A stretch of DNA of 32,000 nt from Acaryochloris marina MBIC11017 (GCF_000018105.1 NC_009932.1:1-32000); one strand, 5' to 3'. Numbered from the stretch's first letter, positions 3,094 through 18,465 are shown. Program-made: numbers and translations. Notes: a model not told the origin generated them from the sequence alone.

Positions 3094-6000
3094 TCAGGGA
3101 CAGTCAGCCCCTAACGCTTGTTGACTTTCTTCTGGAGGAGGGGTTTGACCTTGAACATCAGGAATATCAATATCTACCTCCAAATTCACTGTAGGAACTG
3201 CTCCGCAGGCAACATCAGATGTCTTTGACAACTCCTGTAGATCAGTCCAAAATCCTAAGAATTCCGTTGCAGGGATATCAGGGGTGGTTGGCGCAATGGG
3301 TGAGTTTGTCAGGGTAAAATTACCTGCCGTAACGCCAACACCAGTAGCAGTAACCGTAAAGGTACCCGCCGTATCATTAGCTGTGGCGCTCACACTGGCT
3401 ACCCCATTATTGTCGGTGGTGACGGTGGTCGCGCTGAGGGTGCTGGAGGCTCCAGTGCTCGGTGCACTGTAGTTCAGGGTCGTGTTGGGGACCAGATTGC
3501 CAAACTGGTCAGTGACGGTAACATCTAACGTATTCGCAAAGGCGGTGTTGACGGTGGTTGATTGGTTGTTCCCCCCACTGATGGTTAACAAAGCCGGAAC
3601 ATCGGGAGTATTGGTGAGGTTGAAGCTGACTGGGGCAAGGGTACCAGAGCTGCTGGAGATCACATAGCTGCCAGCCACGGTATTGCCAGTGGCACTCACA
3701 CTAGCCACTCCATTACTATCGGTGGTGGCGGTAGTGGCACTGAGGGTGCTGGAGGCTCCAGTGTTCGGTGCGCTGTAGTTCAGAGTCGTGTTGGGGACTA
3801 GATTGCCAAACTGGTCAGTGACGGTAACATCTAACGTATCCGCAAAGGCGGTGTTGACGGTGGTTGATTGGTCATTCCCCCCACTGATGGTTAACAATGC
3901 TGGAACATCGGGGGTATTGGTGAGGTTGAAGCTGGCCGGGGTAAGGGTGCCAGAGCTGCTAGAGATTACATAGCTGCCAGCCACGGTATTGGCAGTCAAA
4001 GTGGGAGCTGTGGCCACCCCTGTGGCATTGGTGACTACCGTGGTGGTGGGGTTGCCATTGAAACTCCCCGTTGCCCCCGTGGGTGAAGGGGTAGCCGTAA
4101 AGGTAACATTGAGCCCCGATACTGGAAGGGGTGAATTAGCAAAGTTTTCTGTGACTTGAGCTTCTAGAGCTGTGGTGAAGGCCGTATTCACAGTCGTTGT
4201 TTGATTATTGCCCGCAGTCACCGCCAAGCTATACCCTTGGGACTCAACAGCCCCAATATCTACTGTGCCGTTGAAACGATTGGCTCCTCGTTGGTCCGTG
4301 GTCAGCGTGGCTGCCATGGCAAGGGCATCACTCCCTGCATTGAGAGCAGGGCTATCCAGGAAAAAGGCGTGAGTTTGGGTGGGGCCGCCATAGTCGCCGA
4401 GGGGGAGCAGCATCGGATCGAGAGGGGTAGCCACACTGCCGACCAGGGTACTGGTGGTGAAAATCCCCTGGTTATCAACGCCAATCAGGTTATTACCCCC
4501 GTCGATAATCGGGGAATTGGTGGCACTTGCTCGTCTTACATCTGGAAATACCGTAGCTGTATTCAGGGCAATGATACTGTTAGCCACGGTTACCCGCGCA
4601 GTATTAGCACCGCCCAAAAAATTAAGATTGAGAATGCCACCTGAGCTGCTCCCTGGATTGGTCACTTCATTCTGGACAATGGTGCTATTGGTGATGGTGA
4701 TGGTCGCGCCCAAGAGGGAAGTTTGTCCCCGGTTGTAGATGCCACCGCCCCCGAAGACCACTGTATTCCCAGAAATGGTGCTGTTGTTGACGATCACCAC
4801 TGCACTGTTGTTAGCATTTTGTCCCAATTGGGCAATGCCACCGCCCACATTGGCATTATTGCCAGTAATCGTGCTGTTGTTGACGGTCATCACCGTACTA
4901 TTAGGGCCGGCCCCCGTAAAGGAAGTGTTGGACAGGGCACCGCCATTACCCATGGCCGTATTCCCAGAAAGGGTGCTGTTGTTGATGGTCACCGTCACAG
5001 CATTGGCAGTAGTATTAAAGCTGGAAATAGCACCCCCATCATCTGCGGCTGTATTGCCAGTAATGATGCTGTTGTTGACCGTTAGCGTTCCTCTGTTGTG
5101 GATGGCCCCACCATCGTCTCCTTGACCACCAGAATTGGCTATCCCACCCGTCAGGGTGATATCGTTGACCTCTAACTCGGCACCTAGGGCTACATGTATC
5201 AACCGAAAGTCAGGGGCAGTAGTATCCCGCGCAAGGGTATTGCCCATGCCATTAATCGTCAACTTTTCGGGTGCCGTAATGGAGGGCAAACCATTCGCTC
5301 CGTTAGTCGCGTTATCTACCGCTGCCAGGGTGATATTATTCGCCAGATTAATCGTATCCGTCTCTGTATTGCCATTCGCAGTATTAATCGCGGCAATCAA
5401 GCTCGCGGCATCCGTTGCGGTAAAGACCTGTAATAATCCCGTATAGTCTGCTAGGGTGGTGGCCTCAAAAGCGCTACCCGTTTCAATGCTGCCAATCGAC
5501 TGCTCCAGTATCCAGTTACCGCCTCGGGCTGTATCTCCGGTTAGATCTGTACTACCTGCCACATCCGCATGGGTCAATTCGGCAATTTTATTCAGCAGCG
5601 CCAGCCCCTCGGGTCCACGGGCTGTCAAACAGGCATAGATTAAAATATCTGCTTCAGTACTGAGTAAGCCTCCCCATTGCTGAAAATGGGCTTTGTATTT
5701 GTCTAAGGTTTCATTGCTCACATAGGCATTGCCCAGCCAAAACTCGCCCTCATCTCCCTCTGAAACGATATGGACGGCATCAACAGCTCCCACCTGTTGT
5801 AAGACGCTGGTGACTCGTTCGATGCCATTTTCGCTCACGGGGATGGCGACCGTTGTCGTCCCGGCTTCAGTTCCAAACAACAGCCTTTGATAGTCCGGTA
5901 CTGTAGTGTCGAGAAAGACTAACTCGTTGGCGTTAGTGCCATCTGCATTAAATCGCGTCACGATTGGGGCACTATGTTGGCCATTGTGAGTGGTAATCAG

Positions 6001-6993
6001 CTTTTCACTGTCCCCCATCACATTGATGCGATTCGCTGCCGCCAACTGCACCTGATTGCCAGTGACGTCCCCGGCAATGGCGACGTCGCCATTCACTACT
6101 GGGGTATTCAGTAGCCAAGTACGACCTTCTGCATCAACCTCCACACCGGTTGCCACTGGGATATCCCCCCCTGTTAATAGTTCTGAAAGGGATACTGCTC
6201 TGGCGTTCTCTGTTGTATCAGGATCCAGTTGGTTTACTTCCAAACTGAGCAACATATCTGGATGATTGATACGTACCCGACGTTGACCGGGTACTGCAGC
6301 CAGGGTAACTTGCCCCCCCTCAGCGGAGAGGGAGCCTGTATTCACGACCGTGCCGCCAATCAGGCTTAAGTTCTGCCCTTTTGCCACTGCTAGGTGACCG
6401 GCATTGACGATGCTACCGGGCTGGTCCGTATTAAACAACAAACTTTGAGGGGTTCCCTCTAAAGCAGCATAGTCATTGTCGCCAACGGCGTTAAACCAAC
6501 CCTTTTCAAAGCCAATTCCATCGGCAGTGGTTGCGCGAAAATCTGCAGGGACATTGATTGTGGCATTGGGACCAAACACAATCCCTGCCGGGTTCATGAG
6601 GTACAGGTTGGCATTGCTTCCCTGGACTTGAATCATGCCATTAATAATCGAGGCATCTCCTCCGTTCACGCGCCCAAGAATATTCTGAATGCCGGGATTG
6701 CTGAGAAAGGTTGCAATTTCCCCTTGGCTAAGGCCAAATTTCTTAAAGCTATGAAATAGATTGGCCCCATCGCCTGAAAGACTGCCACCACTGATGTTAA
6801 ACCGCTTACCATCAGCGGTGACAATGGTCTGAGTGCCGTTGGGTTCAGTGACAATCGATTGGGCGTGGGCTGGCTGCATCCATAAGTACACTCCCAAAAA
6901 CGGTAGCAATAGAAGTCTGGGTATAGGCCAAAGTTTCATAACAACCCTTGGATAAAGATGATTTAGACCGAAGCTGCGCTTGAGTATGCCCAT
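3094..6993 (-). CDS. Filamentous-haemagglutinin-like TpsA exoprotein: TPS domain, DUF4347-like, right-handed beta-helix, three Ig-like repeats
   Basis: TPS signature NGTQTIVTADGKRFNISGGSLSGDGANLFHSFKKFGL...NILGRVNGGDASIINGMIQV...NLYLMNPAGIVFGPNA. DUF4347-like segment LVFLDTTVPDYQRLL...AVHIVSEGDEGEFWLG...ILIYACLTA...ADVAGSTDLTG...GGNWILE. Beta-helix repeats (GGAIHNRGTLTVNNSIITGNTA..., closing DQRGANRF..DIGAVE). Three ~102-aa Ig-like repeats. The likely true start is the internal ATG at 6939 (MKLWPIPRLLLLPFLGVYLWMQPAHAQ, a signal peptide). Confidence 0.9.
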   Translation of the reverse strand: MGILKRSFGLNHLYPRVVMKLWPIPRLLLLPFLGVYLWMQPAHAQSIVTEPNGTQTIVTADGKRFNISGGSLSGDGANLFHSFKKFGLSQGEIATFLSNPGIQNILGRVNGGDASIINGMIQVQGSNANLYLMNPAGIVFGPNATINVPADFRATTADGIGFEKGWFNAVGDNDYAALEGTPQSLLFNTDQPGSIVNAGHLAVAKGQNLSLIGGTVVNTGSLSAEGGQVTLAAVPGQRRVRINHPDMLLSLEVNQLDPDTTENARAVSLSELLTGGDIPVATGVEVDAEGRTWLLNTPVVNGDVAIAGDVTGNQVQLAAANRINVMGDSEKLITTHNGQHSAPIVTRFNADGTNANELVFLDTTVPDYQRLLFGTEAGTTTVAIPVSENGIERVTSVLQQVGAVDAVHIVSEGDEGEFWLGNAYVSNETLDKYKAHFQQWGGLLSTEADILIYACLTARGPEGLALLNKIAELTHADVAGSTDLTGDTARGGNWILEQSIGSIETGSAFEATTLADYTGLLQVFTATDAASLIAAINTANGNTETDTINLANNITLAAVDNATNGANGLPSITAPEKLTINGMGNTLARDTTAPDFRLIHVALGAELEVNDITLTGGIANSGGQGDDGGAIHNRGTLTVNNSIITGNTAADDGGAISSFNTTANAVTVTINNSTLSGNTAMGNGGALSNTSFTGAGPNSTVMTVNNSTITGNNANVGGGIAQLGQNANNSAVVIVNNSTISGNTVVFGGGGIYNRGQTSLLGATITITNSTIVQNEVTNPGSSSGGILNLNFLGGANTARVTVANSIIALNTATVFPDVRRASATNSPIIDGGNNLIGVDNQGIFTTSTLVGSVATPLDPMLLPLGDYGGPTQTHAFFLDSPALNAGSDALAMAATLTTDQRGANRFNGTVDIGAVESQGYSLAVTAGNNQTTTVNTAFTTALEAQVTENFANSPLPVSGLNVTFTATPSPTGATGSFNGNPTTTVVTNATGVATAPTLTANTVAGSYVISSSSGTLTPASFNLTNTPDVPALLTISGGNDQSTTVNTAFADTLDVTVTDQFGNLVPNTTLNYSAPNTGASSTLSATTATTDSNGVASVSATGNTVAGSYVISSSSGTLAPVSFNLTNTPDVPALLTISGGNNQSTTVNTAFANTLDVTVTDQFGNLVPNTTLNYSAPSTGASSTLSATTVTTDNNGVASVSATANDTAGTFTVTATGVGVTAGNFTLTNSPIAPTTPDIPATEFLGFWTDLQELSKTSDVACGAVPTVNLEVDIDIPDVQGQTPPPEESQQALGADCP
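3385..3996 (-). repeat. Two near-identical 306-bp (102-aa) tandem coding repeats (Ig-like modules) in the FHA-like gene
   Basis: The shadow ORFs 3482-3667 and 3788-3973 are near-identical and offset by exactly 306 bp. In the protein, TPDVPALLTISGGN(D/N)QSTTVNTAFA(D/N)TLDVTVTDQFGNLVPNTTLNYSAP... occurs twice. A third, diverged copy lies upstream at about 3997-4300. Confidence 0.85.
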
Positions 6994-7751: not shown

Positions 7752-10700
7752 ATGGCATTATTTTGCGATCGCATAGCCATCACAGCGATTACCCTTACTG
7801 TTTTTTATAGCCTGCCTACGATCGCTGAGCCTCAACCTTCAACTCAAGCCTCTGACCTACGCTTCTCGCCTCGCTTCGGTATTGGCGCGAATAGCCCCAG
7901 CAGCGGTACAAACACCACCACTCGCCTCGAAACCTTTGTTCCTGTTTGGCAGAAGCCGGGTCGAGCATTGACCTTCTTCGAAGGCCGTCTCCTGCTAGAT
8001 GACCAGGGCAACCCAGGTGGAAATATTCTGTTCGGCTTCCGTCAGTATAGTGATGATCTAAAACGTATATTTGGTGGTCATCTAGGTTTTGATATTCGTA
8101 ACACCGATAATAATACCTTCCAGCAATTGAGCTTGGGTATAGAAAGCCTCGGAAAGGATATTGACCTTCACCTGAATGGGTATTGGCCCGTTGGCAGTAC
8201 TCGCCGCCAAACCAGGCAACGTATTTTTGAGGTATTGCAACTTAATGGTGACCCTCGATTTACTGGGAATATTCTACTTTTAGACTTGCTGCGGCGACGT
8301 CTGATTACGCGTCAATTTGAAGAAGCCTTGGCCGGAGTGGACTTTGAAGTTGGAAAACAACTCCTTAGTTTTAAGAATGGAGGTGATTTACGAGCATACC
8401 TAGGCCCTTACTTTCTCCATAGCAGTATTCGAGGTAATACGATTGGAGGTCGGTTGCGCTTACAGGTACGACCTACTCCTAATATCAGTGGTGGAATTGG
8501 AATTCAGCATGATGATTTTTTCGGCACCCATGTGTTGGGAAATATCACCTTTACACTCTCAGTAAATCAGCCTCAAAGCCCAGTTTCACCAGCGAACAAT
8601 GTTGTGGCACGAATGGGTGATTCAGTCATTCGCAACAACAGCATAATTGTAGATACCCCCAACACTACAGAACTTCTTGAAACTGAGACTCAAACGGTTG
8701 CAGCAATGAACCCAACCACGGGAGAGCCATGGTTTTTTCACCATGTCAACTTAGGTTTGGGCAATAGCGATGGCACCTTTGAATCACCATTTCCTAGCTT
8801 GGAAGATGCACTAGGAGTGATAAGGGGGGATGGGAATGACATCGTTTATGTAGCAAATGGGATAAATTCAGGTATTGAAGGATTTACGATTCCTGACAAG
8901 GTACAAGTTCGTTCAAGAGGAGCTGTACAGCAGATTGATGTTAACCCCATTTCATTCCCATTGCGGCCAGAGAGTGTTCTTAGGCTAGGCCAGGTTCAAC
9001 TTCCCTTCTCTGGCGATAGTAGCTTCCCTCGCATCACTAGTACCGTCAGTTTGGGGAATAACACGCTGCTCTCAGGGTTTGATGTACAGGTAACGGGTGC
9101 CCCAGCATTAGTAGCTAACAACATTACTACTGCGACTGTTATAGATAATAGTCTTGCTAGTACAAATTCAACTACCAATGGCATCTCAATCAATGGCATT
9201 AGTGGCTCACTCAATCTTGACAATAACGCGATTAATATTGATAACCCTGCGATGGCAGGAGTGGATATTAGCAATGTTAGTGCGTCTACAGGCTCAGTTC
9301 GAATTGTAGGTACCTCAGGGAGCCGCATCCAACGCACGGGAAGAGATGGAGTGGTGCTGGGAAATAATACTACCATCGCAAATTTAAACATAGCCCCTTT
9401 ACCCAACAACGTAGATTTTTCAGGCAATCGAGGCATCTTTGGCCGTAACGTTCGTAATGTTAGGGTGCAGAACAATCAGATTATTGTTATCGGGAGAGAC
9501 TTTTCTCCAGGCATCAAATTAGAGAACATAACAGGTTCTGCTGAAATTATTAATAACCAGATTACCAGGAACCCTATATTTGTTGATCCTGCTGCTCCAG
9601 GTATATCTCACGGTATTTCTCTCAGCTTATCCAACATCAATTTGGACCGTGTAGTCATCTCTGAAAACACAATTAAAACAACAGGGATCAGTACTGACGG
9701 CATTGTGATTCAGTCTTTGAATGATAGTGCTATTCAATCCGTTACTATCTCTGGAAATACGATTGAAACAAATGGAGTACAATCTGACGGCATCGTGGTT
9801 CAATCTTCCAATAATAGTACTATTCAATCCGCTAACATCTCTGGAAATACGGTGGAAACAGCAGGATTGAACTCTCAGGGTATTTCCGTTCGGCCTATCT
9901 ACAACAGTGTCATCACTACTGCTACTATCTCTGGAAACACCGTCTCAACGGATAGAATCTTTTCTTATGGCATTTTGGTTGAGCCGTTCAACAAAAGTAC
10001 TATTACTACCGCAACCATCTCTGAAAATACTGTCTCGACTACTGGAATTGCTGATGGGATCTTGCTCCGACCCGGCTATAACAGTGCTATTACCACCACA
10101 ACCATCTCTGGAAATAAAATTTCAACAGCTGGTTTAATTTCTGATGATATGGTTTTAAGACCTTTCTTTACTATTCCTAGTACAACTGCCAGTATTAATA
10201 TCAGGCCTACTACTAATAGCGTTATATCCACTGCGATCATCTCTGGAAATACCGTCTCGACAACTGGACTTGCCTATGGCATTAACGTTCAACCTTCCCA
10301 AAACGGTACAATCACCGTTGCGACTATTTCAGGTAACACTGTCTCAACGGATAGATTCAATGCTGCTGGTATTAGGGTCCAGCCATACATAGACAGCACT
10401 ATCAATAAAGCGACTATCTCTGGAAACACGGTTTCGACGTCAGGGAAAAATGCTGACGGTATCTTAGTAAGGCCTGTTGGCAATGGAGCCATCCAATCCG
10501 CTACTATTTCTAATAATAAAATCCTTCAAGCAGGGCGGGACAGTGTACGGATTCAAGCAAGACAGGATAGTTTACGGATAGGAAATTATGATGTTAATCC
10601 CATCTGTGCTGCTATTTCTGGCAATCGTAGTGATAATCCCAACGTTGCAATGGCAGGAGGGTTAGATTTTAATCTAATCTCTGCGAGGAGTCCTTTCCAG

Positions 10701-10820
10701 GTGGAAAGTTTAACAACTGTCAGTCTTGACAATAATAATGCAATCTTCAGCTTCGATGGCACGTTGGTTCCTCCTGGAACTCCTTCTAGTCCCTTTACGA
10801 ATGTAGTTAGTTGTCCCTAG
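7752..10820 (+). CDS. Inverse autotransporter (type Ve, intimin/invasin-type N-terminal beta-barrel) with a parallel beta-helix repeat passenger
   Basis: The N-terminal ~280 aa follow the intimin beta-domain pattern: ILFGFRQYSDDLKRIFGGHLGFDIRNTDNNTFQQLSLGIESLGKDIDLHLNGYWPVGS...AGVDFEVGKQL...GGRLRLQVRPTPNISGGIGIQHDDFFGTHVLGNITFTL. The passenger has ~10 repeats of 29-30 aa, 'ATISGNTVSTxG...GI.V.P..NS.I..'. A Shine-Dalgarno precedes the ATG. Confidence 0.85.
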   Translation: MALFCDRIAITAITLTVFYSLPTIAEPQPSTQASDLRFSPRFGIGANSPSSGTNTTTRLETFVPVWQKPGRALTFFEGRLLLDDQGNPGGNILFGFRQYSDDLKRIFGGHLGFDIRNTDNNTFQQLSLGIESLGKDIDLHLNGYWPVGSTRRQTRQRIFEVLQLNGDPRFTGNILLLDLLRRRLITRQFEEALAGVDFEVGKQLLSFKNGGDLRAYLGPYFLHSSIRGNTIGGRLRLQVRPTPNISGGIGIQHDDFFGTHVLGNITFTLSVNQPQSPVSPANNVVARMGDSVIRNNSIIVDTPNTTELLETETQTVAAMNPTTGEPWFFHHVNLGLGNSDGTFESPFPSLEDALGVIRGDGNDIVYVANGINSGIEGFTIPDKVQVRSRGAVQQIDVNPISFPLRPESVLRLGQVQLPFSGDSSFPRITSTVSLGNNTLLSGFDVQVTGAPALVANNITTATVIDNSLASTNSTTNGISINGISGSLNLDNNAINIDNPAMAGVDISNVSASTGSVRIVGTSGSRIQRTGRDGVVLGNNTTIANLNIAPLPNNVDFSGNRGIFGRNVRNVRVQNNQIIVIGRDFSPGIKLENITGSAEIINNQITRNPIFVDPAAPGISHGISLSLSNINLDRVVISENTIKTTGISTDGIVIQSLNDSAIQSVTISGNTIETNGVQSDGIVVQSSNNSTIQSANISGNTVETAGLNSQGISVRPIYNSVITTATISGNTVSTDRIFSYGILVEPFNKSTITTATISENTVSTTGIADGILLRPGYNSAITTTTISGNKISTAGLISDDMVLRPFFTIPSTTASINIRPTTNSVISTAIISGNTVSTTGLAYGINVQPSQNGTITVATISGNTVSTDRFNAAGIRVQPYIDSTINKATISGNTVSTSGKNADGILVRPVGNGAIQSATISNNKILQAGRDSVRIQARQDSLRIGNYDVNPICAAISGNRSDNPNVAMAGGLDFNLISARSPFQVESLTTVSLDNNNAIFSFDGTLVPPGTPSSPFTNVVSCP
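7765..7772. repeat. HIP1 octamer GCGATCGC
   Basis: Exact match read in the sequence. Confidence 0.95.
9651..10560 (+). repeat. About 10 tandem ~90-bp (29-30 aa) beta-helix coding repeats (ISGNTV/I-S/E-T...)
   Basis: Periodicity read from the translated protein: VVISENTIKTTG.., VTISGNTIETNG.., ANISGNTVETAG.., ATISGNTVSTDR.. and so on. One unit is expanded to ~45 aa. Confidence 0.7.
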
Positions 10821-11185: not shown

Positions 11186-13273
11186 CTAGAGCAATGACTC
11201 TAAGTTATTCCGGATAGCCATAGTTGTAGAATGCTCAAGACCCAAGGTGACTACTGCGATACTCAGAGCTTGCTGAAAGCAAGAAATAGCCTCTTCATAG
11301 CGCCCTTGGTTGTTGTAGAGTCCTGCCAGGTTATTGAGGCTAATCACGACAGAGGGGTGTTCGCTGCCCAAGAGCTTCTGTTTCATCTCCAACGCTTGCA
11401 CATAGAGCGGTTCTGCTTCGCTGTAGCGCTCTTGGTTGTTGTAGAGTAATGCCAGGTTATTGAGACTTTGAGCGACATCAGGGTGTTCGCTGCCCAAGAG
11501 CTTCTGTCTCATCTCCAACGCTTGCACATTGAGCGGTTCTGCTTCACTGCAGCGCCCTTGGTTGTAGTAGAGTCCTGCCAGGTTATTGAGGCTTTGAGCG
11601 ACATCAGGGTGTTCGCTGCCCAAGAGCTTCTGTCTCATCTCCAACGCTTGCACATTGAGCGGTTCTGCTTCGCTGTAACGTCCTTGATTTTTGTAGAGTC
11701 CTGCCAGGTTATTGAGGCTAAGAGCGACATCAGGGTGTTCGCTTCCCAAGAGCTTCTTGCTCATCTCCAACCCTTGCACATAGAGCGGTTCTGCCTCGCT
11801 GTAGCGCCCTTGGTTGAAGTAGAGTAATGCCAGGTTATTGAGGCTTTGAGCGACATCGGGGTGTTCGCTGCCCAAGAGCTTCTGACTCATCTCCAACGCT
11901 TGTACCAAGAGGGGTTCTGCTTCTATGTACCGCCCTTGGTTGACGTAGAGGAATGCCAGGTTATTGAGGCTCGTTGCAACATCGGAGTGTTCGCTGCCCA
12001 ATCTCTGTCGAGTTTGTTCTAAGCATTTTTGTCTCCAGGGCAGAGATAAGCCATAGTTTCCCTGCCCTGCATAGAATCGACTGATGCCAACATAGGGCCA
12101 TATCAATTCATCGTCATTTAGTGAGTCAACCCATTGATTGATCAGTTCCTCTAAGTGAGGAATTTTTGCACTCATCTGAGCAATCACATCAATCGTTGGA
12201 CTTTCATCAATCTCCTTAGCCGCGACTACCATTCCTATACAAAAGGCTGCCTTAAGGGGTTTCCCCTGATCAGGACGCTGATTTAGTTTAATTCGGAAGT
12301 ACTCCTGCACAATTTGATGAAGCTTGTAAGTACCCTGGACTACTCGTTTGAGTAAGTTTCTAGCGATTAAACCGTCATCTCTGGTGTCTTCTAATGCATC
12401 TGGATCCTGTTCAGACAGGCAGCTTTCAACCAAGGTCCAAGGAATAGGTGCAACCGCAAACATCCCCAAGAAGCAAGCAAGTTCTTGTTCTGCCTCACTC
12501 AACTCTACCCAGCTTAATTCCAACGCAGCAGCGATACCAAACTGTGCGGTCATTCCTGATTCTCTTTCTGTCAGCGCTTTAGCATCAAGCCGCTTGGATT
12601 CAAGTCGCTTAATCAATTTATGGAGGGACCAGTCGGGCTTATTGGCTAGATACCGCCCCACTAACTCTAGTCCTAAGGGCAGGTTCCCCACCCATCTACA
12701 TAAGGCTTGGGCATCGTCGAGCTGAGGATCAATGCGCTCGGCTCCAACTAGAGTTCTCAGTAGGGATAAGGCACTCGTATCGCTCAGTTCTGTGATTGGG
12801 AGGGAATGAACGGATAGACCTAAATCCTGACGGGTTGTGATTAGAACTTTATACTGTGGATCTGATGGCGGTAAGTACGGTTCGATGGTCTCAAGGTCCA
12901 TCACATCATCAAAAATAATCAGCACCTTTCCGGTGGGCCAGTGCCCCCAGATATAACTCACTTGTTTTTCTTCATCGAGTCCATCCGGGAAGGTCAGGAC
13001 TAACTTGGTCCGGGCAAATTCGATAATTTGGGCGGCTAGCTCTTGACCTTTCACTCGCAACCAGCAGAGTCCACCCGGATAATGACCCTGATTGAGCTGG
13101 GAGATGGCATATTGCAGAGCAAGTTCGGTCTTCCCGATCCCACCCATACCTGCTAATGCAGTGAGGGCTACCGGATTGTTCTCTTGGAGGAGCTGGTGCA
13201 ATTTGTGCAGCGTTTGGTTACGACCGACAAATTTAACGACACCGCTACGAGGGAGATTATGAGGGGGACTCAC
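11186..13273 (-). CDS. STAND NTPase: NB-ARC (AP-ATPase) domain plus a C-terminal 42-aa TPR array; no N-terminal effector domain in this ORF
   Basis: Walker A LAGMGGIGKTELALQYA, Walker B KVLIIFDDV, LITTRQ, and GLPL-type GNLPLGLELVGRYL. Six TPR units of the form HPDVAQSLNNLAxLYxNQGRYSEAEPLxVQALEMxQKLLGSE. The start in the ORF track is a GTG (13271-13273), and the frame is open for 46 codons further upstream with no start codon. Confidence 0.85.
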   Translation of the reverse strand: MSPPHNLPRSGVVKFVGRNQTLHKLHQLLQENNPVALTALAGMGGIGKTELALQYAISQLNQGHYPGGLCWLRVKGQELAAQIIEFARTKLVLTFPDGLDEEKQVSYIWGHWPTGKVLIIFDDVMDLETIEPYLPPSDPQYKVLITTRQDLGLSVHSLPITELSDTSALSLLRTLVGAERIDPQLDDAQALCRWVGNLPLGLELVGRYLANKPDWSLHKLIKRLESKRLDAKALTERESGMTAQFGIAAALELSWVELSEAEQELACFLGMFAVAPIPWTLVESCLSEQDPDALEDTRDDGLIARNLLKRVVQGTYKLHQIVQEYFRIKLNQRPDQGKPLKAAFCIGMVVAAKEIDESPTIDVIAQMSAKIPHLEELINQWVDSLNDDELIWPYVGISRFYAGQGNYGLSLPWRQKCLEQTRQRLGSEHSDVATSLNNLAFLYVNQGRYIEAEPLLVQALEMSQKLLGSEHPDVAQSLNNLALLYFNQGRYSEAEPLYVQGLEMSKKLLGSEHPDVALSLNNLAGLYKNQGRYSEAEPLNVQALEMRQKLLGSEHPDVAQSLNNLAGLYYNQGRCSEAEPLNVQALEMRQKLLGSEHPDVAQSLNNLALLYNNQERYSEAEPLYVQALEMKQKLLGSEHPSVVISLNNLAGLYNNQGRYEEAISCFQQALSIAVVTLGLEHSTTMAIRNNLESLL
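11189..11989 (-). repeat. Tandem 126-bp (42-aa) TPR coding repeats, six units plus a partial one, central units near-identical
   Basis: First unit (HSDVATSL...) begins at nt 11989. Units 2-5 (about 11360-11863) differ at only a few positions, which gives the periodic plus-strand shadow ORFs 11231-11449 and 11468-11827. Confidence 0.85.
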
Positions 13274-13311
13274 CTGGGAAGAAGGCGAGGCTTCTGATCC
13301 CTGACTCTGAT

Positions 13312-13360
13312 AACTCTCCGTTGGTGGGCTGAGTCCTGACGGAGAGTTGTCTACTTTTTT
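13312..13360 (-). promoter_or_regulatory. Candidate programmed -1 ribosomal frameshift cassette: A_AAA_AAG heptamer, UAG, 5-nt spacer, 10-bp hairpin
   Basis: Minus-strand mRNA reads ...CUA ACA AAA AAG UAG AC AACUCUCCGU-(17 nt)-ACGGAGAGUU. The heptamer is at 13354-13360, in the X_XXY_YYZ phase of the TIR ORF. The stop is at 13351-13353. Stem arms are 13339-13348 and 13312-13321, perfectly complementary. The downstream NB-ARC ORF is in the -1 frame. Confidence 0.45.
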
Positions 13361-14493
13361 GTTAGGGACTCTACCGCCCTCCGTATCCCATTGACAACAT
13401 CCAAGAAAGCTTCATCGCGATCCGCCCATTTCGTCACGGGCTTGGCATCTTTAGGTAATATCTGAAGCTTACTGAAGGGTGACCCTTGCCAGTCACTGGG
13501 ACGCAGAATAATAGGGATGACTCGGGCCGTGCCTTCGTTATGTCGGTCCATCGCTCTTTGCATCTCAATGTCGTAGCAATAGTCAGAGGCCATAAAGGGT
13601 GGGCTGACCAGTAGCAGAATGATTTGAGCAGATTCTAGATGGCTGTCGATTTTTGTTTTCCATTCTTCCCCGGCTTCGATGTCTCTATCATGCCAATCTG
13701 CAATTTTCCCCTGGCGTTTCAGGTTGGAAAGATGGGTGACTAGCTCTTTGCGCAAATCATCGTCTTCATGGGAATAGGAAATAAAGACCTCTAAGGGGTT
13801 GTTGGCGTCTGGATTCATGGGAGAAGGTGTGGGTGTTGGAGGAGTTTGAGCATTGCTTTTATCCTGATTCTTAGTTTCCTCTGTAACGGGCTTTTTGATC
13901 AGAACCGGGGTGAGATGTTCTTCAATACCTTCCATGCGGATAGAGGCACAGCCCAGGTTGAAGGCAAACTCCACATCTCGACCAGAACCCAGGGCATCAT
14001 AGAATCCCACGGCAAAGGAGATCGCCGCTTTATCCTGGATCGCCCGTTTCATGCCGATGACGTAGGGAATATGTTCTGAGATGGCTTTTGCTTGCACCTC
14101 GGTGTAGCAGCCATTGAGGACCACACAGCGCAGTTGATCGGCAAACAGACTAAACAGGTCTGCAATCGCTTCACCACTGACCAATTGGGTGTTGCCACTG
14201 ACATCTTCAAAGACCAAGCCCTCATCCCCTTCCCCATGACCTGAGAAATGAACGATCTGGGGATTCAGATCCAGCATGGCCCGCTGAATATCACGGGGAC
14301 GGACTGCCAGGCGCTGTTCAAGCTGGAACTCATCTCGATGTTGTGCCCGCTGTAAACCCTCATCAATATCCCTTAACTCCTGATCCAATCGGAGAGGCTG
14401 TGTATCTTTGGGATTCGCTGCAAGGACAAGAATGGTTTGGGCAGTCATAATGGCAGGGCAGATAAATTCGGGCAGAGATAGTGGAACGCTCAA
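13351..14493 (-). CDS. Two-effector-domain protein: N-terminal short caspase/CHAT-like (His-Cys dyad) domain plus C-terminal TIR domain
   Basis: The N-terminal ~190 aa contain IVHFSGHGEGD (His86) and CVVLNGCYT (Cys129), a CHAT/caspase-like dyad context. The TIR signature is LEVFISYSHEDDDLRKELVTHL...AQIILLLVSPPFMASDYCYDIEMQRA (candidate catalytic Glu present)...VIPIILRP. The track start is a TTG; the ATG at 14448 (MTAQTILVLAANP, aligning with the paralog N-terminus) is more likely. Confidence 0.85.
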   Translation of the reverse strand: MSVPLSLPEFICPAIMTAQTILVLAANPKDTQPLRLDQELRDIDEGLQRAQHRDEFQLEQRLAVRPRDIQRAMLDLNPQIVHFSGHGEGDEGLVFEDVSGNTQLVSGEAIADLFSLFADQLRCVVLNGCYTEVQAKAISEHIPYVIGMKRAIQDKAAISFAVGFYDALGSGRDVEFAFNLGCASIRMEGIEEHLTPVLIKKPVTEETKNQDKSNAQTPPTPTPSPMNPDANNPLEVFISYSHEDDDLRKELVTHLSNLKRQGKIADWHDRDIEAGEEWKTKIDSHLESAQIILLLVSPPFMASDYCYDIEMQRAMDRHNEGTARVIPIILRPSDWQGSPFSKLQILPKDAKPVTKWADRDEAFLDVVNGIRRAVESLTKK

Positions 14494-14583: not shown

Positions 14584-17500
14584 TCAAGAGATGACCTCCC
14601 CATCGCCTGTGAAGTTGGGGCCTTCTAGCCGCAGAAAGTAAAGCTGTCCCCCATAATCTCCAGCAACAACTGTGCAACCATCTAGGGCAATCTCACAACA
14701 TCGAAATGCACCTTCTCCGGTGAAGCTCATCACTTCCATGCCTGTCTCCAGGTCCCACACCTTGAGGGTACTGTCCCCAGACGCGGAGACCACGGTTTGG
14801 CCATCGGGGCTGATGCTCACGCCAGTGACAAGTGAAGTATGTCCTATGAGGGTGCGCTGCTCCTGGCCCGTCGCCAGGTCCCACACCTTCAGGGTATTGT
14901 CCCAAGACCCTGAGACCACGGTTTGGCCATCGGGGCTGATGCTCACACCAGTGACAAGCGAAGTATGTCCTGTGAGGGTACGCTGCTCCTCGCCCGTCTC
15001 CAGGCCCCACACCTTCAGGGTATTGTCCCCAGAAGCGGAGACCACGGTTTCACCATCGGGGCTGATGCTCACACCAGTGACAAGTGAAGTATGTCCTGTG
15101 AGGGTGCGCTGCTCTTGGCGCGTCGCCAGGTCCCATACCTTCAGGGTATTGTCCCCAGAAGCGGAGACCACGGTTTGGCTATCGGGGCTGATGCTCTCGC
15201 CAGTGACAGAGCCAGTATGTCCTATAAGAGTGCATAGTTTCTTTCCAGTCTTTAGGTTCCACACCTTGAGGGTATTGTCCCTAGACGCGGAGACCACGGT
15301 TTGGCCATCGGGGCTGATGCTCACGCCAGTGACATATTCTGTATGTCCTATAAGGGTGCATAGTTTCTTTCCAGTCTTTAGGTTCCACACCTTGAGGGTA
15401 TTGTCCCTAGACGCGGAGACCACGGTTTGGCCATCGGGGCTGATGCTCACACCAGTGACAGATGAAGTATGTCCCTTGAGGGTGTGATGCTCATTTCCAG
15501 TCTTTAGGGACCACACCTTGAGGGTATTATCACTAGACGAGGAGACGATGGTTTGGCCATTGGGGCAAATGCTGACGTCCCTTACAAAGTCAGTATGTCC
15601 TGTGAGGGTGCCATGCTCATTTCCAGTCTTTAGGGACCACACCCTGATGGTATTGTCCAAAGACGCAGAGACAACAGTTTGACCATCGAGGCTGATGCTC
15701 ATGCTATAGACAAAATCAGTATGTCCTGTGAGGGTGCGCTGCTCATTTCCCGTCTCCAAGACCCACACCTTCAGGGTCTTGTCCCTAGACGCGGAGACGA
15801 TGGTTTGGCTATCGGGGCTGATGCTCACATCAAAGACAGATGAAGTATGTCCCTTGAGGGTGCGCTGCTCATTTCCTGTCTCCAAGTCCCACACCTTAAG
15901 GGTCTTGTCCAAAGACGCAGAGACAACAGTTTGGCCATCAGGGCTGATACTGACGCCAGTGACAGATGAAGTATGTCCTATGAGAGTGCGCTGTTCCTCG
16001 CCCGTCTCCAGCTCCCACACCTTCAGGGTATTATCACTAGACGCGGAGACGACGGTTTGGCCATCGGGGCTGATACTGACACCAGTGACAGATGAAGTAT
16101 GCCCTGTGAGAGTGCGTAGCTCCCTTCCCGTCTCCAAGTCCCACACCTTCAGGGTCTTGTCCCTAGACGCAGAGACGACGGTTTGGCCACACGGGCTAAT
16201 GCTCACACGCCTGACAAAGTTAGTATGTCCTGTGAGGGTACGTAGCTCCTCGCCCGTCGCCAAGTCCCACACCTTGAGGGTATGGTCCCTAGACGCAGAG
16301 ACGACGGTTTGGCCATCGGGGCTGATGCTCACGCCAGTGACAGAGTCAGTATGTCCTGTGAGGGTGCGCACTAATGCTCCCCCCGCTTGGTTGAGGTGGG
16401 GGAATAGACACCGTATCCAGCACTCTCCCTGTCCCTGAGCCAAAGATTGAGTCAAAGCGGTCATATCCGGTGAATTTTGACTCAACAAACGCCCATAGAG
16501 CTGACTGCGAAGCTGCTCAGGATGCTGATTTAAGACATGGCTGGATAACCGCAATCCACTTTGGACTATGTTTAGGTCTTTGTCCCTGGGTAACGTCTCA
16601 TAGTCCAATAGCAGCGCATTGATATCGGTGACTCCCAATTTGCGTTGCATCCAACGATAGTCCCAGAGTAATTGGCGTAACTCATCGGTGCGTTCTGCCT
16701 GCTTGAGGTGATGGGCCAAATGCTCATAGAAATACCCATCCTTTGGTCCACGATGCCACCCCTCAGTGCAGCTCTGCTGATAAGCCTCCAGAAGTTCCTG
16801 ATGCAATGCTTTTTCGTCGGCCTGCTGGGCCTGTAAATAATCCTGCTGTAAGTCATGGAGGCTGACTTGCCGCTGAGGATAGTCCCCCTCTAGCCGCAGC
16901 ATACCTTTACTCGATAAGGTCGTTAGGATTTTGCCCGCATCTCGCTCCTTTAATGCTCCGGTATATTGCCATAGGCGAACAATGACTGCTTCAGGAATCA
17001 ATTCATCGGCTGGAAACACTGCCAGTTCTTGATACCGTTCGGCAGCGATGGGGTTGGTTTCTGCTAAGACTGTTGCACTGACATGCAGGGCTTTGAAGAC
17101 ATCGGGGTAGGAATAATGACTAAACTGTTTTTGGATAAATTCAAGATCTGAATCTTGTAAGGCACTGAGGACATGGGGCCATGGGGTTAAATCCCGCACC
17201 ATGGCACCGCATTGGGCCAGGGCTAAGGGCAAGTTTCCACATTCTCTTGCTACCGCCTGGGCTTGGGAAGGCAGTTCTGATATAGAGACGCCCACCCAAG
17301 CAGCTAATAACTCCAGCGCCTGATCGTCATTGAGTACTGACAGGGAAAAGTCAGTGGCTCCTAATCCCGTGATTAATTCTGAGTCACGGGTTGTTACCAC
17401 CAAGGTACTTTGATGTCCTAGGACATTGAAGACTTCAGCATCATCGATGCGCCAGACATCATCTAGGATCAATAGACTTTGGCGTCCCTGCCATAGGGTT

Positions 17501-18465
17501 TGAAGTCGGGTTTTCCCTTCATTGATATCTTCAAATACCTGGCGTTCACCACAAAGGGCTTCTGCTAGATCGGTTTGCTGGGCCAGCAGGTTGGGTTCTA
17601 TCCCCACGGTTAGCCAATAAATCCCATCAGGGAAGGCTGCTTGAACTTGAGGGTCATAGGCTAGGGCTGCGGCCAACACCGATTTGCCAATACCGCCCAT
17701 GCCCTGGACACCAATGCGTTGCTGATGCCCCGTCATCACTACGGGCTGAGCTAGATTGTTGAGGACTTTCTCTCTCAGGGCTTTTAGGGTCTGAGGACGA
17801 GGTAAAAAGTGGGGGGGTAACTCTGGCACTCTCCACAGCTTTTCAGGGGGCGGTTGTTCTGATAAGGGTTGGAGGGGTTCGGTTTGAATACTGGATTTTT
17901 GGACTAAGACTGGGGTGTGGGATTCGGGGAAGCCCTCGATTTGAATGGCACTGCGTCCTAGTTCAAAGGCAAATTCAATATCTCGGCCTGCACCCAAGGC
18001 ATCGTAGAAACCCACGGCAAAGGCCTGGGCTGCTTCGTTGCTGATTTCCTGCTGCATACCCACCACATAGTCAATATGTTGGGCGATGGCTTGGGCTTGC
18101 TCCTGGGTATAACATCCATTCAGAATGACGCAGTGGATATCCTCAGCAAACAGAGTAAACAAACCTGCGAGAGCTGCACCTGTGACGAGTTTGGGATTGC
18201 CTAATTCATCTTCAAAGAAGAGTCCTGCTTCACCTTCTCCCCGACCAGCGAAGTGAATTATCTGAGGAGTTTCATCCAATAATGCCCGTTGAATATCTTT
18301 AGTGCGTACATCCAGGCAGGGGCTTAGAGTGAACTGATCTCGATGCTCAGATCTGCGTAACCCGTTTTTAATGTCGCGTAATTCTCGTCCGACTTGGCGC
18401 AATCCATCGGGGTTGCTGGCAAGGAATAGAATGGTTTGCTGGTCTGGTGGGTGCGGACTCGTCAT
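14584..18465 (-). CDS. STAND/NLR-like protein: CHAT-like N-domain (catalytic His replaced by Arg), NB-ARC NTPase, 14 WD40 blades
   Basis: The N-terminal ~190 aa are paralogous to the TIR protein's N-domain (QTILFLASNP...IIHFAGRGEGE...CVILNGCYT...AVGFYDALGAGRDIEFAFELG). Walker A GVQGMGGIGKSVLAAALA, Walker B LLILDDVW, VVTTRD, and GLPL-type CGNLPLALAQCG. There are 13 canonical 42-aa WD40 repeats (LTGHTSSVTGVSISPDGQTVVSASxDNTLKVWDLETGEEQRT) plus one degenerate closing blade. Confidence 0.9.
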   Translation of the reverse strand: MTSPHPPDQQTILFLASNPDGLRQVGRELRDIKNGLRRSEHRDQFTLSPCLDVRTKDIQRALLDETPQIIHFAGRGEGEAGLFFEDELGNPKLVTGAALAGLFTLFAEDIHCVILNGCYTQEQAQAIAQHIDYVVGMQQEISNEAAQAFAVGFYDALGAGRDIEFAFELGRSAIQIEGFPESHTPVLVQKSSIQTEPLQPLSEQPPPEKLWRVPELPPHFLPRPQTLKALREKVLNNLAQPVVMTGHQQRIGVQGMGGIGKSVLAAALAYDPQVQAAFPDGIYWLTVGIEPNLLAQQTDLAEALCGERQVFEDINEGKTRLQTLWQGRQSLLILDDVWRIDDAEVFNVLGHQSTLVVTTRDSELITGLGATDFSLSVLNDDQALELLAAWVGVSISELPSQAQAVARECGNLPLALAQCGAMVRDLTPWPHVLSALQDSDLEFIQKQFSHYSYPDVFKALHVSATVLAETNPIAAERYQELAVFPADELIPEAVIVRLWQYTGALKERDAGKILTTLSSKGMLRLEGDYPQRQVSLHDLQQDYLQAQQADEKALHQELLEAYQQSCTEGWHRGPKDGYFYEHLAHHLKQAERTDELRQLLWDYRWMQRKLGVTDINALLLDYETLPRDKDLNIVQSGLRLSSHVLNQHPEQLRSQLYGRLLSQNSPDMTALTQSLAQGQGECWIRCLFPHLNQAGGALVRTLTGHTDSVTGVSISPDGQTVVSASRDHTLKVWDLATGEELRTLTGHTNFVRRVSISPCGQTVVSASRDKTLKVWDLETGRELRTLTGHTSSVTGVSISPDGQTVVSASSDNTLKVWELETGEEQRTLIGHTSSVTGVSISPDGQTVVSASLDKTLKVWDLETGNEQRTLKGHTSSVFDVSISPDSQTIVSASRDKTLKVWVLETGNEQRTLTGHTDFVYSMSISLDGQTVVSASLDNTIRVWSLKTGNEHGTLTGHTDFVRDVSICPNGQTIVSSSSDNTLKVWSLKTGNEHHTLKGHTSSVTGVSISPDGQTVVSASRDNTLKVWNLKTGKKLCTLIGHTEYVTGVSISPDGQTVVSASRDNTLKVWNLKTGKKLCTLIGHTGSVTGESISPDSQTVVSASGDNTLKVWDLATRQEQRTLTGHTSLVTGVSISPDGETVVSASGDNTLKVWGLETGEEQRTLTGHTSLVTGVSISPDGQTVVSGSWDNTLKVWDLATGQEQRTLIGHTSLVTGVSISPDGQTVVSASGDSTLKVWDLETGMEVMSFTGEGAFRCCEIALDGCTVVAGDYGGQLYFLRLEGPNFTGDGEVIS
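14725..16362 (-). repeat. 13 tandem 126-bp WD40 coding repeats with very high inter-unit identity
   Basis: The first blade starts at nt 16362 (checked against the DNA: CTC ACA GGA CAT ACT GAC TCT, i.e. LTGHTDS). Period is 126 bp. Units 8 and 9 are almost identical. The long periodic antisense shadow ORFs (14672-15487, 15728-16438) follow from this. Confidence 0.9.

Follow-up and report, generated by a model that had tools for sequence, protein, structure and literature searches.

A candidate -1 ribosomal frameshift cassette, conserved among cyanobacteria, at the 3' end of a CHAT-TIR effector gene of Acaryochloris marina

The stretch of DNA analysed here, referred to below as the window, comprises 32,000 nucleotides of a 155,110-bp replicon of Acaryochloris marina MBIC11017 (NC_009932.1:1-32000). 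On its minus strand, an open reading frame for a protein with a CHAT-like, caspase-fold domain and a TIR domain (ORF1) is followed by a second one, for an NB-ARC and TPR protein (ORF2), whose frame is -1 relative to that of ORF1. The junction between the two, which is the subject of this report, carries a set of features that we interpret as a probable -1 programmed ribosomal frameshift (PRF) cassette. The genes and junction features are as follows.

13351 to 14448, minus strand: ORF1, the zero-frame product, a 365-amino-acid (aa) CHAT-like (caspase-fold) and TIR protein (ABW33190.1 / WP_012168259.1).
13378 to 13382, minus strand: GGAGG within CGG AGG (Arg-Arg), 17 nucleotides (nt) upstream of the heptamer, a possible lineage-specific enhancer resembling a Shine-Dalgarno (SD) sequence.
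13354 to 13360, minus strand: candidate slippery heptamer A_AAA_AAG, in X_XXY_YYZ phase.
13351 to 13353, minus strand: zero-frame stop TAG, directly 3' of the heptamer.
13312 to 13348, minus strand: candidate stimulatory hairpin, starting 5 nt past the heptamer (spacer TAGAC).
13274 to 13354, minus strand: predicted transframe linker, 27 codons that ribosomes can read only once they have shifted into the -1 frame (VDNSPSGLSPPTESYQSQGSEASPSSQ).
11186 to 13273, minus strand: ORF2, the NB-ARC and TPR sensor module, 695 aa from GTG 13273; the NCBI start is TTG 13201.
14584 to 18465, minus strand: CHAT-NB-ARC-WD40 gene, a single ORF of 1,293 aa directly upstream of ORF1 (Pfam and PADLOC).

The likely start of ORF1 is ATG 14448, which gives the protein its length of 365 residues. 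Pfam places the CHAT domain at residues 22-159 and TIR_2 at residues 221-328, and PADLOC returned ThsB-like TIR and chat matches at the level of domains only. His71, Cys114 and Glu295 are unchanged throughout 12 homologues; judging from known motifs, the first two would form the caspase-like dyad and the third would be the catalytic glutamate of the TIR domain. In ORF2, the NB-ARC domain (residues 19-231, 8e-16) contains the Walker A motif GMGGIGKT and is followed by C-terminal TPR_12 (4.5e-100) and TPR_10 repeats, and a conserved N-terminal motif, NLPRSGVVKFVGR, begins 5 codons past GTG 13273. An NCBI protein of 671 aa that begins at TTG 13201 (P0001) is 100% identical to this module. The neighbouring CHAT-NB-ARC-WD40 gene has the effector-NTPase-repeat layout within one frame; its syntenic counterpart at locus L002 carries NB-ARC, APAF1_C and WD40.

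On the minus strand the junction reads ...GAG TCC CTA ACA AAA AAG TAG AC AACTCTCCGT (17 nt) ACGGAGAGTT..., with ORF1 ending in ...ESLTKK* spelled CTA ACA AAA AAG TAG. An earlier note, made from the sequence of the window alone, had described here an in-phase heptamer abutting the stop, a 5-nt spacer, a perfect 10-bp hairpin with a 17-nt loop and a Ser/Pro linker of 27 codons, and all of these were found again on re-reading. The stem pairs AACTCTCCGT (13348-13339) with ACGGAGAGTT (13321-13312) around a loop at 13338-13322, and is also the minimum free energy (MFE) structure (-16.9 kcal/mol, z = -2.9), equalled by 1 of 200 dinucleotide shuffles. The -1 frame is open from 13411 and, as the note had said, contains no ATG, GTG or TTG before GTG 13273; CTG and ATH codons are absent from this interval as well. 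The note had taken that GTG for the only candidate start of ORF2, which does not hold, since TTG 13201 is a second candidate and is the one used by NCBI. The heptamer by itself is at chance level, AAAAAAG being present 11 times in the window vs 9.6 expected. It is the features in combination, and the fact that they are conserved, that stand above chance, not the heptamer alone.

Two other readings of the hairpin were considered and rejected. An intrinsic terminator does not fit, as there is no T-run past the stem, the loop is 17 nt long and a terminator scan between the ORFs was empty; nor does a recombination hairpin of the attC type, as the arms vary freely and lack the RYYYAAC...GTTRRRY cores. 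A search for a promoter or terminator between ORF1 and ORF2 gave chance-level matches only. An Rfam cmscan of 13150-13500 at E <= 10 gave no match to a frameshift family, its lone 14.9-bit match, to Ocean-VII, being noise.

We consider it probable that these features, located where the CHAT-TIR effector ORF ends, form a conserved -1 PRF cassette, a reading that rests on comparative sequence analysis. Most ribosomes would read ...ACA AAA AAG and stop at the adjacent TAG, giving the free 365-aa CHAT-TIR protein. A fraction would pause at the hairpin 5 nt downstream, where tRNA-Lys would re-pair one base back on A_AAA_AAG, and would then continue as ...LTKK|VDNSPSG... through the Ser/Pro linker into NB-ARC-TPR. 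The shifted product, CHAT-TIR-NB-ARC-TPR, would have the effector-NTPase-repeat layout that is classical for an NLR-like STAND receptor; the likeness of this layout to that of the neighbouring CHAT-NB-ARC-WD40 gene, already remarked on in the earlier note, stands. The two products proposed there are retained with the same junction (ESLTKK|VDNSPSG), while their sizes, given as about 380 and about 1,100 aa, are revised to 365 and 1,088 aa, counted from ATG 14448. The peptides predicted for the linker and fusion are VDNSPSGLSPPTESYQ... (linker), VDNSPSGLSPPTESYQSQGSEASPSSQVSPPHNLPR (tryptic, linker) and SLTKKVDNSPSGLSPPTE (Glu-C, junction). In other cyanobacteria the same heptamer, stop and hairpin would couple the effector module to differing sensor or partner modules.

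The comparison drew on the DNA of 174 loci, taken from GTDB genomes, JGI metagenomes and PLSDB plasmids or found by exact-protein look-ups; each locus was anchored by a tblastn search in which the C-terminal 110 residues of ORF1 served as query. The survey set consists of the 52 loci whose TIR ORF ends no more than 3 residues from the C-terminus of the window protein. At 20 of the 52, an in-phase heptamer (A_AAA_AAA in one case) is accompanied by a -1 ORF that either spans 100 codons or more or is still open where the contig ends. Three have the heptamer with a short -1 ORF, 25 have neither, and four, GC-rich planctomycete or Chloroflexota loci with terminators, have long, unrelated -1 ORFs without the heptamer. 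Heptamer and -1 ORF are thus associated across the 52 loci (Fisher p = 1.3e-7, without correction for shared ancestry). The whole cassette, a CHAT-TIR ORF ending in NNA AAA AAG and a stop and leading in the -1 frame into a partner, is present at about 30 loci in at least 8 cyanobacterial lineages and in metagenomes. The hosts of the heptamer include several Acaryochloris strains and plasmids, metagenome-assembled genomes (MAGs) of Acaryochloridaceae, Stenomitos, Elainellaceae (three) and Prochloraceae, other uncultured cyanobacteria, and mat or lake metagenomes.

Among the 24 heptamer loci tabulated, all of them in phase, 23 have AAAAAAG and one AAAAAAA. AAA AAG is preceded in every case by a codon with A in third position (ACA 6, TCA 6, GCA 5, CCA 3, CTA 3, ATA 1), whichever of six residues it encodes (T, S, A, P, L, I); four further SRA assemblies likewise have a codon ending in A. 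In the ORFs of the window AAA and AAG are used at 28:20 and 24% of codons end in A, and NNA AAA AAG is therefore expected at about 6% (0.06) of x-Lys-Lys ends. The spelling of the heptamer is thus under selection at the nucleotide level. The next codon is a stop at 23 of the 24 loci (TAG 19, TAA 4), and at L094 the stop comes one codon later.

Relatives that lack the heptamer, for example those with synonymous AAG AAG and the EAD1-adaptor versions, have neither the hairpin nor a related -1 ORF. The opposite arrangement, separate ORFs lacking both heptamer and hairpin, had been named in the earlier note as speaking against a frameshift and was not what we found. At L090 the same AKK* end is written with synonymous GCA AAG AAG and no -1 ORF lies downstream; L004 has TCC CAA AAG and no -1 ORF; and L088, with GCA AGG AAG, contains a decayed copy of the -1 ORF of L103. 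Five Nostoc loci (L008, L010, L011, L012 and L087) have a TIR ORF that ends early (...AVNSL TAA) and no -1 ORF. About 10 nt past their TIR stop lies an in-frame TCA AAA AAG TAG relic with a weak match to the hairpin model described below (about 20 bits), and by their sequence these junctions look like decayed cassettes.

At nearly all heptamer loci a stem of 7-13 bp starts 3-8 nt past the heptamer, and the mean MFE z is -2.4 there vs -0.36 at 21 control TIR ends. In alignment A2, which holds 14 sequences, gap-free and in the same register, scored on the 10-pair stem of the window, 90.7% of cells are paired vs 41-53% after a shift of the partner by 1-3 columns. Changes on both sides affect 7 of the 10 pairs (30 cells). 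In 500 shuffles the observed value was never attained, and RNAalifold, run independently, recovers this stem, compensation being seen in 6 of 9 pairs. In alignment A4 (18 sequences, 13-pair stem) 83% of cells are paired vs 37-49% when slid, with double changes in 11 of 13 pairs. A GAGA, GAGG or AAGG core is present in the 3' arm throughout, with A44 and G45 invariant in A4, and the loop-length variants all differ by 3 nt. L093 and L100, whose loops are 3 nt shorter and out of register in MAFFT, were left out of the pair counts, and the CHAT-TIR ORF of L020, a low-coverage MAG with internal stops, was left out of the alignment. A covariance model built from the aligned hairpins (R1) has its sole window match at 13302-13360 (70 bits) and recovers the non-training junctions L006, L100, L093 and L021, as well as, weakly, the Nostoc relics. 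As expected of a -1 PRF site, there is a downstream structure about 5-9 nt from the heptamer with covariation support. The check on orthologs proposed in the earlier note, whether heptamer, stop and hairpin are kept with compensatory changes in the stem, thus came out positive and is strong comparative evidence.

The association was also used predictively. Three CHAT-TIR proteins of differing N-terminal architecture were picked from their C-termini alone, after which the DNA at their junctions was examined. The protein ending in ...TLIKK* (L168) has ATA AAA AAG TAG, a hairpin of -16.6 kcal/mol and a -1 NB-ARC-TPR ORF of 777 codons, and that ending in ...SLAKK* (L169/L170) has GCA AAA AAG TAA, a 13-bp hairpin (-22.9 kcal/mol) and a -1 ATPase ORF of 305 codons. 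The third, an EAD1-CHAT-TIR protein ending in ...SLTNK* (L166), has ACA AAC AAG TAA, no hairpin (-0.3 kcal/mol) and no -1 ORF, which suggests that the cassette is absent where a homotypic adaptor does the coupling. At the same locus (L166 3001-7527), EAD1-CHAT-TIR, EAD1-trypsin and EAD1-VMAP-C genes lie in a row beside a PIN/PhdYeFM toxin-antitoxin pair.

The coding status of the linker was examined over the 207 nt past the heptamer in six Acaryochloris copies. Indels are absent, as are stops in the -1 frame, whereas each of the other two frames is interrupted by 3-5 stops. Variable sites number 15, 5 and 24 at positions 1, 2 and 3 of the -1-frame codons, and the synonymous fraction of codon differences is 0.45 in this frame vs 0.30 and 0.15 in the others. 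By this pattern of substitution the -1 frame of the linker is a coding one. An independent start of ORF2 at GTG 13273, which the earlier note had kept as an alternative, found no support: there is no SD-like sequence upstream of it, five sister copies have GCA, ATA, GAA, GCA and GTA in its place, and no ribosome-binding site is conserved. Past the hairpin, the window and its eight closest relatives have no start codon other than this unconserved GTG; at 8 of 23 loci, the stretch from the shift site to the first conserved NTPase motif is free of in-frame ATG, GTG and TTG codons. The annotated starts of the partner genes (P0001, P0004, P0006, P0007 and P0008) are TTG, CTG or a Met inside Walker A, P0006 being annotated from the Met within GMGGIGKT (it begins MGGIGKT). 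In the Acaryochloris proteins the annotated starts cut off the conserved NLPRSGVVxFVGR, and TTG 13201 removes this motif from the window protein as well. If the frameshift is real, these start calls are a systematic mis-annotation.

Several observations weigh against a frameshift and in part favour a different explanation. The loci are phylogenetically related, so that the counts overstate their independence. A number of partner ORFs are broken (L083, L020, L100, L086 and L005), which indicates rapid decay within the family. Related loci do not conserve the SD-like element found upstream at dnaX/IS911-type sites: GGAGG is kept in the Acaryochloris copies, L001 and L006 (AGG AGG) and is replaced elsewhere by CGG CGA, CGT CGT or CGC CGC, and is therefore no part of the conserved cassette. 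Its spacing in the window is also longer than the 10-14 nt that are optimal for dnaX-type sites. A 2026 RNA-structure screen of 202 cyanobacterial genomes and a 2026 ribosome-profiling study of Synechocystis report only the +1 frameshift of prfB. Lastly, 8 of 23 loci, of partner classes other than that of the window (L013, L103, L005, L169, L006, L100 and L092/L098), carry a semi-conserved GTG or ATG in frame at codon 17-18, 10-13 nt past the purine-rich 3' arm of the hairpin, and in four of them (L100, L013, L092 and L098) an SD-like element lies 4-12 nt upstream of it. The purine-rich arm could double as a sequestered SD there, allowing some independent or coupled initiation.

Extended to the window, this would make the junction one of translational coupling between two genes. 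A terminating ribosome would melt the hairpin and expose an SD in its 3' arm, ORF2 would start at GTG 13273, TTG 13201 or a non-canonical codon, and the heptamer would be an accident of the Lys-Lys end. The purine core that the 3' arm always contains, the codon 17-18 starts and the many stand-alone CHAT-TIR proteins that end at the same position are all in keeping with coupling. However, the absence of a usable start past the hairpin in the window and its closest relatives, and the truncation of the conserved NB-ARC N-terminus or the P-loop by the annotators' TTG and ATG starts, argue against it. Coupling also leaves unexplained the use of NNA AAA AAG across six codon families, the invariable -1 frame, the lack of stops from the heptamer on and the loop indels in multiples of 3. 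We consider it unlikely overall and reject it for the class of the window, keeping it as a possible addition to frameshifting in other classes. In the AAA_16 and coiled-coil classes, the codon 17-18 start may be a secondary, coupled start that gives free partner protein.

The frame relation of the two ORFs could also have arisen in another way, a possibility already raised in the earlier note as an indel between A6 and A7 or a sequencing error. ORF1 and ORF2 would then be a broken gene, a phase-variable A6/A7 contingency locus or the product of a homopolymer assembly error. One extra A does restore the fusion, and that state is seen at L021 (4442-4497), on a plasmid scaffold of Leptolyngbya sp. 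Cla-17. The sequence there is GTA AAA AAA GTA ACC, with the TAA out of frame, and the TIR ORF runs 84 residues further through a retained 10-bp hairpin (-19.3 kcal/mol). L021 may be either a hard-wired fusion or a homopolymer error, and in the former case it shows that such a fusion is viable but rare. Plasmid-borne conflict genes often have idiosyncratic frameshifts, and several partner ORFs are disrupted, as listed above. One such frameshift affects the counterpart of the CHAT-NB-ARC-WD40 gene on plasmid pMB06 of Acaryochloris 'Moss Beach' (L083 1-200, compared with window 17780-17900). There, two homopolymer differences (A7 vs GAAAAG and C8 vs C7) separate a CHAT ORF from an NB-ARC-WD40 ORF, an ordinary, non-conserved disruption.

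At the cassette itself, a length of 365 aa is shared by all nine members of the three 90% clusters, whose assemblies come from Sanger and long-read sequencing, SRA and ENA. The run is A6 in every Acaryochloris copy and in four separate SRA-run assemblies, which argues against sequencing error and phase variation; tract length is not polymorphic among close strains or assemblies, as it would be at a phase-variable locus. Across the family, A6 is found at about 30 loci sequenced by Sanger, long-read and Illumina methods, in families at 60-90% protein identity, and is short for phase variation. No proteins that read through the KK junction were found among the 72 candidates scored, a number that limits the sensitivity of this search. 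A pseudogene, moreover, would over such divergence have lost the co-varying hairpin, the open -1 frame and the nucleotide-level constraint on the heptamer. Loss or variation of the reading frame is thus a very improbable explanation. The second copy of the MBIC11017 type, the partner of P0006, also has A6 in each of three Logan assemblies (L171-L173, from runs DRR194262-DRR194264), and in each a single contig spans the two ORFs without a break. Should the runs be RNA-seq, they would point to co-transcription and to mostly unslipped mRNA.

In transcriptional slippage, RNA polymerase would insert an extra A into the A6 run, and an identical fusion protein would arise by another mechanism. Homopolymeric A runs are known slippage sites (PMC5009743), and L001, with an A7 run, and L021, with its in-frame A7G variant, would suit it. 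However, the efficient bacterial case needs runs of about 8-9 or more (PMC3711429), and the run here is A6 followed by a conserved G. The conserved hairpin 5-8 nt downstream has the geometry of a ribosomal stimulator, and the conserved adjacent stop and the codon phase are irrelevant to a polymerase. Polymerase slippage is promoted by nascent-RNA hairpins that lie upstream. We regard this explanation as distinctly improbable, and ribosomal frameshifting remains the reading that we favour.

The partners encoded in the -1 frame were assigned to classes by Pfam, as follows.

NB-ARC-TPR: window, Acaryochloris copies, L006, L020, L100, L168.
AAA_16/nSTAND-like ATPase: L013, L016, L022, L103, L094, L086, L169.
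CHASE2 domain: L093.
TPR only: L015/L096.
Coiled-coil protein without a Pfam assignment: L092/L098.

Varied as the partners are, the opening 15 or so codons of the -1 frame, where the hairpin is encoded, are homologous from class to class, which places the cassette with the effector module, at its 3' end. When the conceptual fusion was used as a query, the homologues retrieved fell into three classes of proteins. The first consists of proteins in which effector and NTPase are joined: single-ORF CHAT-TIR-NB-ARC-TPR proteins (P0002, 1,125 aa, and P0005, 1,132 aa) and TIR-NB-ARC-TPR proteins (P0009 and P0013-15). The other two are Acaryochloris NB-ARC-TPR proteins annotated without an effector and stand-alone CHAT-TIR proteins. 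The conceptual fusion aligns with P0002 in one high-scoring segment pair that runs across the junction (52% identity, E = 2e-113), and in the fused proteins the motif NLPRSGVVxFVGR stands directly after the Ser/Pro linker. The single-ORF homologues are thus collinear with the predicted fusion, which by this comparison would be a natural architecture. P0002 and P0005 have effector and NTPase on one polypeptide by virtue of a single ORF; in the window this would be the case only if the -1 shift occurs.

The closest known parallel is dnaX, which has the same heptamer with a stem-loop a few nucleotides downstream and makes two products that share their N-terminal part (PMC3711429; PMC5009743). In dnaX, however, the shift yields the shorter product, whereas here it would add about 720 residues; the upstream SD stimulator of dnaX is not conserved in the cassette, whose stop abuts the heptamer, and the two have no sequence or Rfam relationship. 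Insertion sequences of the IS3 family (IS911 and IS150, OrfA/OrfAB) also combine A_AAA_AAG with a downstream structure, a 3' stem-loop in the cited accounts (PMC3711429, PMC5009743), and produce a short protein plus a fusion to a downstream ORF that has no efficient initiation of its own. The cassette differs in lying within host conflict genes (CHAT-TIR and STAND NTPase), in its simple hairpin, and in being linked to the effector while the partners vary. In phage gpG/gpGT and retroviral gag/gag-pol, frameshifting fixes the ratio of an abundant short form to a rare, C-terminally extended one that has the same N-terminus and takes part in the same assembly (PMC5009743, PMC13581612), as it might here; those are viral systems with other heptamers and genes, and a stoichiometric role of the cassette is a supposition.

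In its domains the predicted receptor resembles STAND systems such as AP-ATPase/NB-ARC-TPR proteins, Avs, bNACHT and the EAD-adaptor systems described by Kaur and Aravind, which combine a TIR or caspase-like effector, a STAND NTPase and C-terminal repeats. It shares with them a place in a conflict-gene island of a cyanobacterial lineage of multicellular habit (PMC7159879, PMC8195603). In those systems effector and sensor are linked by single-ORF fusion or by EAD adaptors, whereas here the link would be made by recoding, and the EAD1 homologues lack the cassette. The earlier note knew of no programmed frameshifting that sets the ratio of free to sensor-tethered effector in a bacterial NLR-like system, and our literature searches of open-access papers and bioRxiv, which did not extend to subscription journals, likewise found no report of it in STAND, TIR, CHAT or EAD conflict systems. 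They covered the 2016 review by Atkins, the GeneTack survey, papers of the Aravind group and the two 2026 studies cited above. This use of frameshifting has apparently not been described before.

To our knowledge, very few non-mobile, non-viral bacterial genes with -1 PRF have been identified, examples being dnaX, copA, csoS2 and cdd. If our interpretation is correct, the cassette would represent a whole new family of cellular -1 frameshift sites and the first in NLR-like STAND/TIR conflict systems, with recoding as a third route of effector-sensor coupling beside gene fusion and EAD adaptors. Many cyanobacterial gene pairs annotated as 'TIR domain-containing protein' and 'tetratricopeptide repeat / NB-ARC / ATPase' would then encode one receptor plus free effector, and annotation would have truncated the N-terminus of the NTPase, in one case starting it inside the P-loop. 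We infer that slippage occurs, at some efficiency, and that the ratio of free to tethered effector is of importance. We prefer the view that sensor-tethered CHAT-TIR would nucleate or regulate assemblies that also hold free CHAT-TIR subunits. The cassette would in that event offer a handle on how the free:tethered stoichiometry of a TIR/caspase-like effector controls activation or autoimmunity, and the covariance model of hairpin and heptamer is ready for use in finding more cases.

The shift could moreover serve as a regulated input to the receptor, rising when termination or Lys decoding is perturbed, as by phage takeover or anticodon nucleases. UAG is read by RF1 only. Because the heptamer abuts this stop at 19 of 24 loci and relies on tRNA-Lys, the shift fraction could respond to translational stress, although we hold regulation of this kind to be rather doubtful. 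Were it to operate, the dose of tethered CHAT-TIR would increase relative to the free form when needed, and the cassette would be a portable 'recoding linker' for many sensors. Slippage on AAG would be reduced by a tRNA-Lys(CUU) in the host, the sole tRNA-Lys of E. coli being tRNA-Lys(UUU); a scan of the window, in which tRNA-Lys was sought, found no tRNA genes.

Elsewhere in the window, the segment 21592-29206 (plus strand) encodes, in order, a trypsin-VMAP-M1-VMAP-C protein, a MoxR-type AAA ATPase, a 955-aa protein with an FGE-sulfatase (FGS-type) domain at its C-terminus, and two more FGE-sulfatase-domain proteins. This gene set resembles the 'VMAP ternary' conflict systems described by Kaur et al. 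(PMC7159879), and the window is therefore a conflict-gene island. A 1,299-aa exoprotein with TPS, DUF4347 and Big_1 domains, which resembles two-partner-secretion cargo, is encoded at 3094-6993 (minus strand), and a 1,022-aa protein with a weak match to an inverse-autotransporter beta-domain at 7752-10820 (plus strand). Three identical terminator-like matches (CGCTTGCACATTGAGCG...), at 11393, 11519 and 11645 (plus strand), lie antisense to the TPR region of ORF2; they are spaced 126 nt apart because the DNA of the TPR region repeats every 42 codons.

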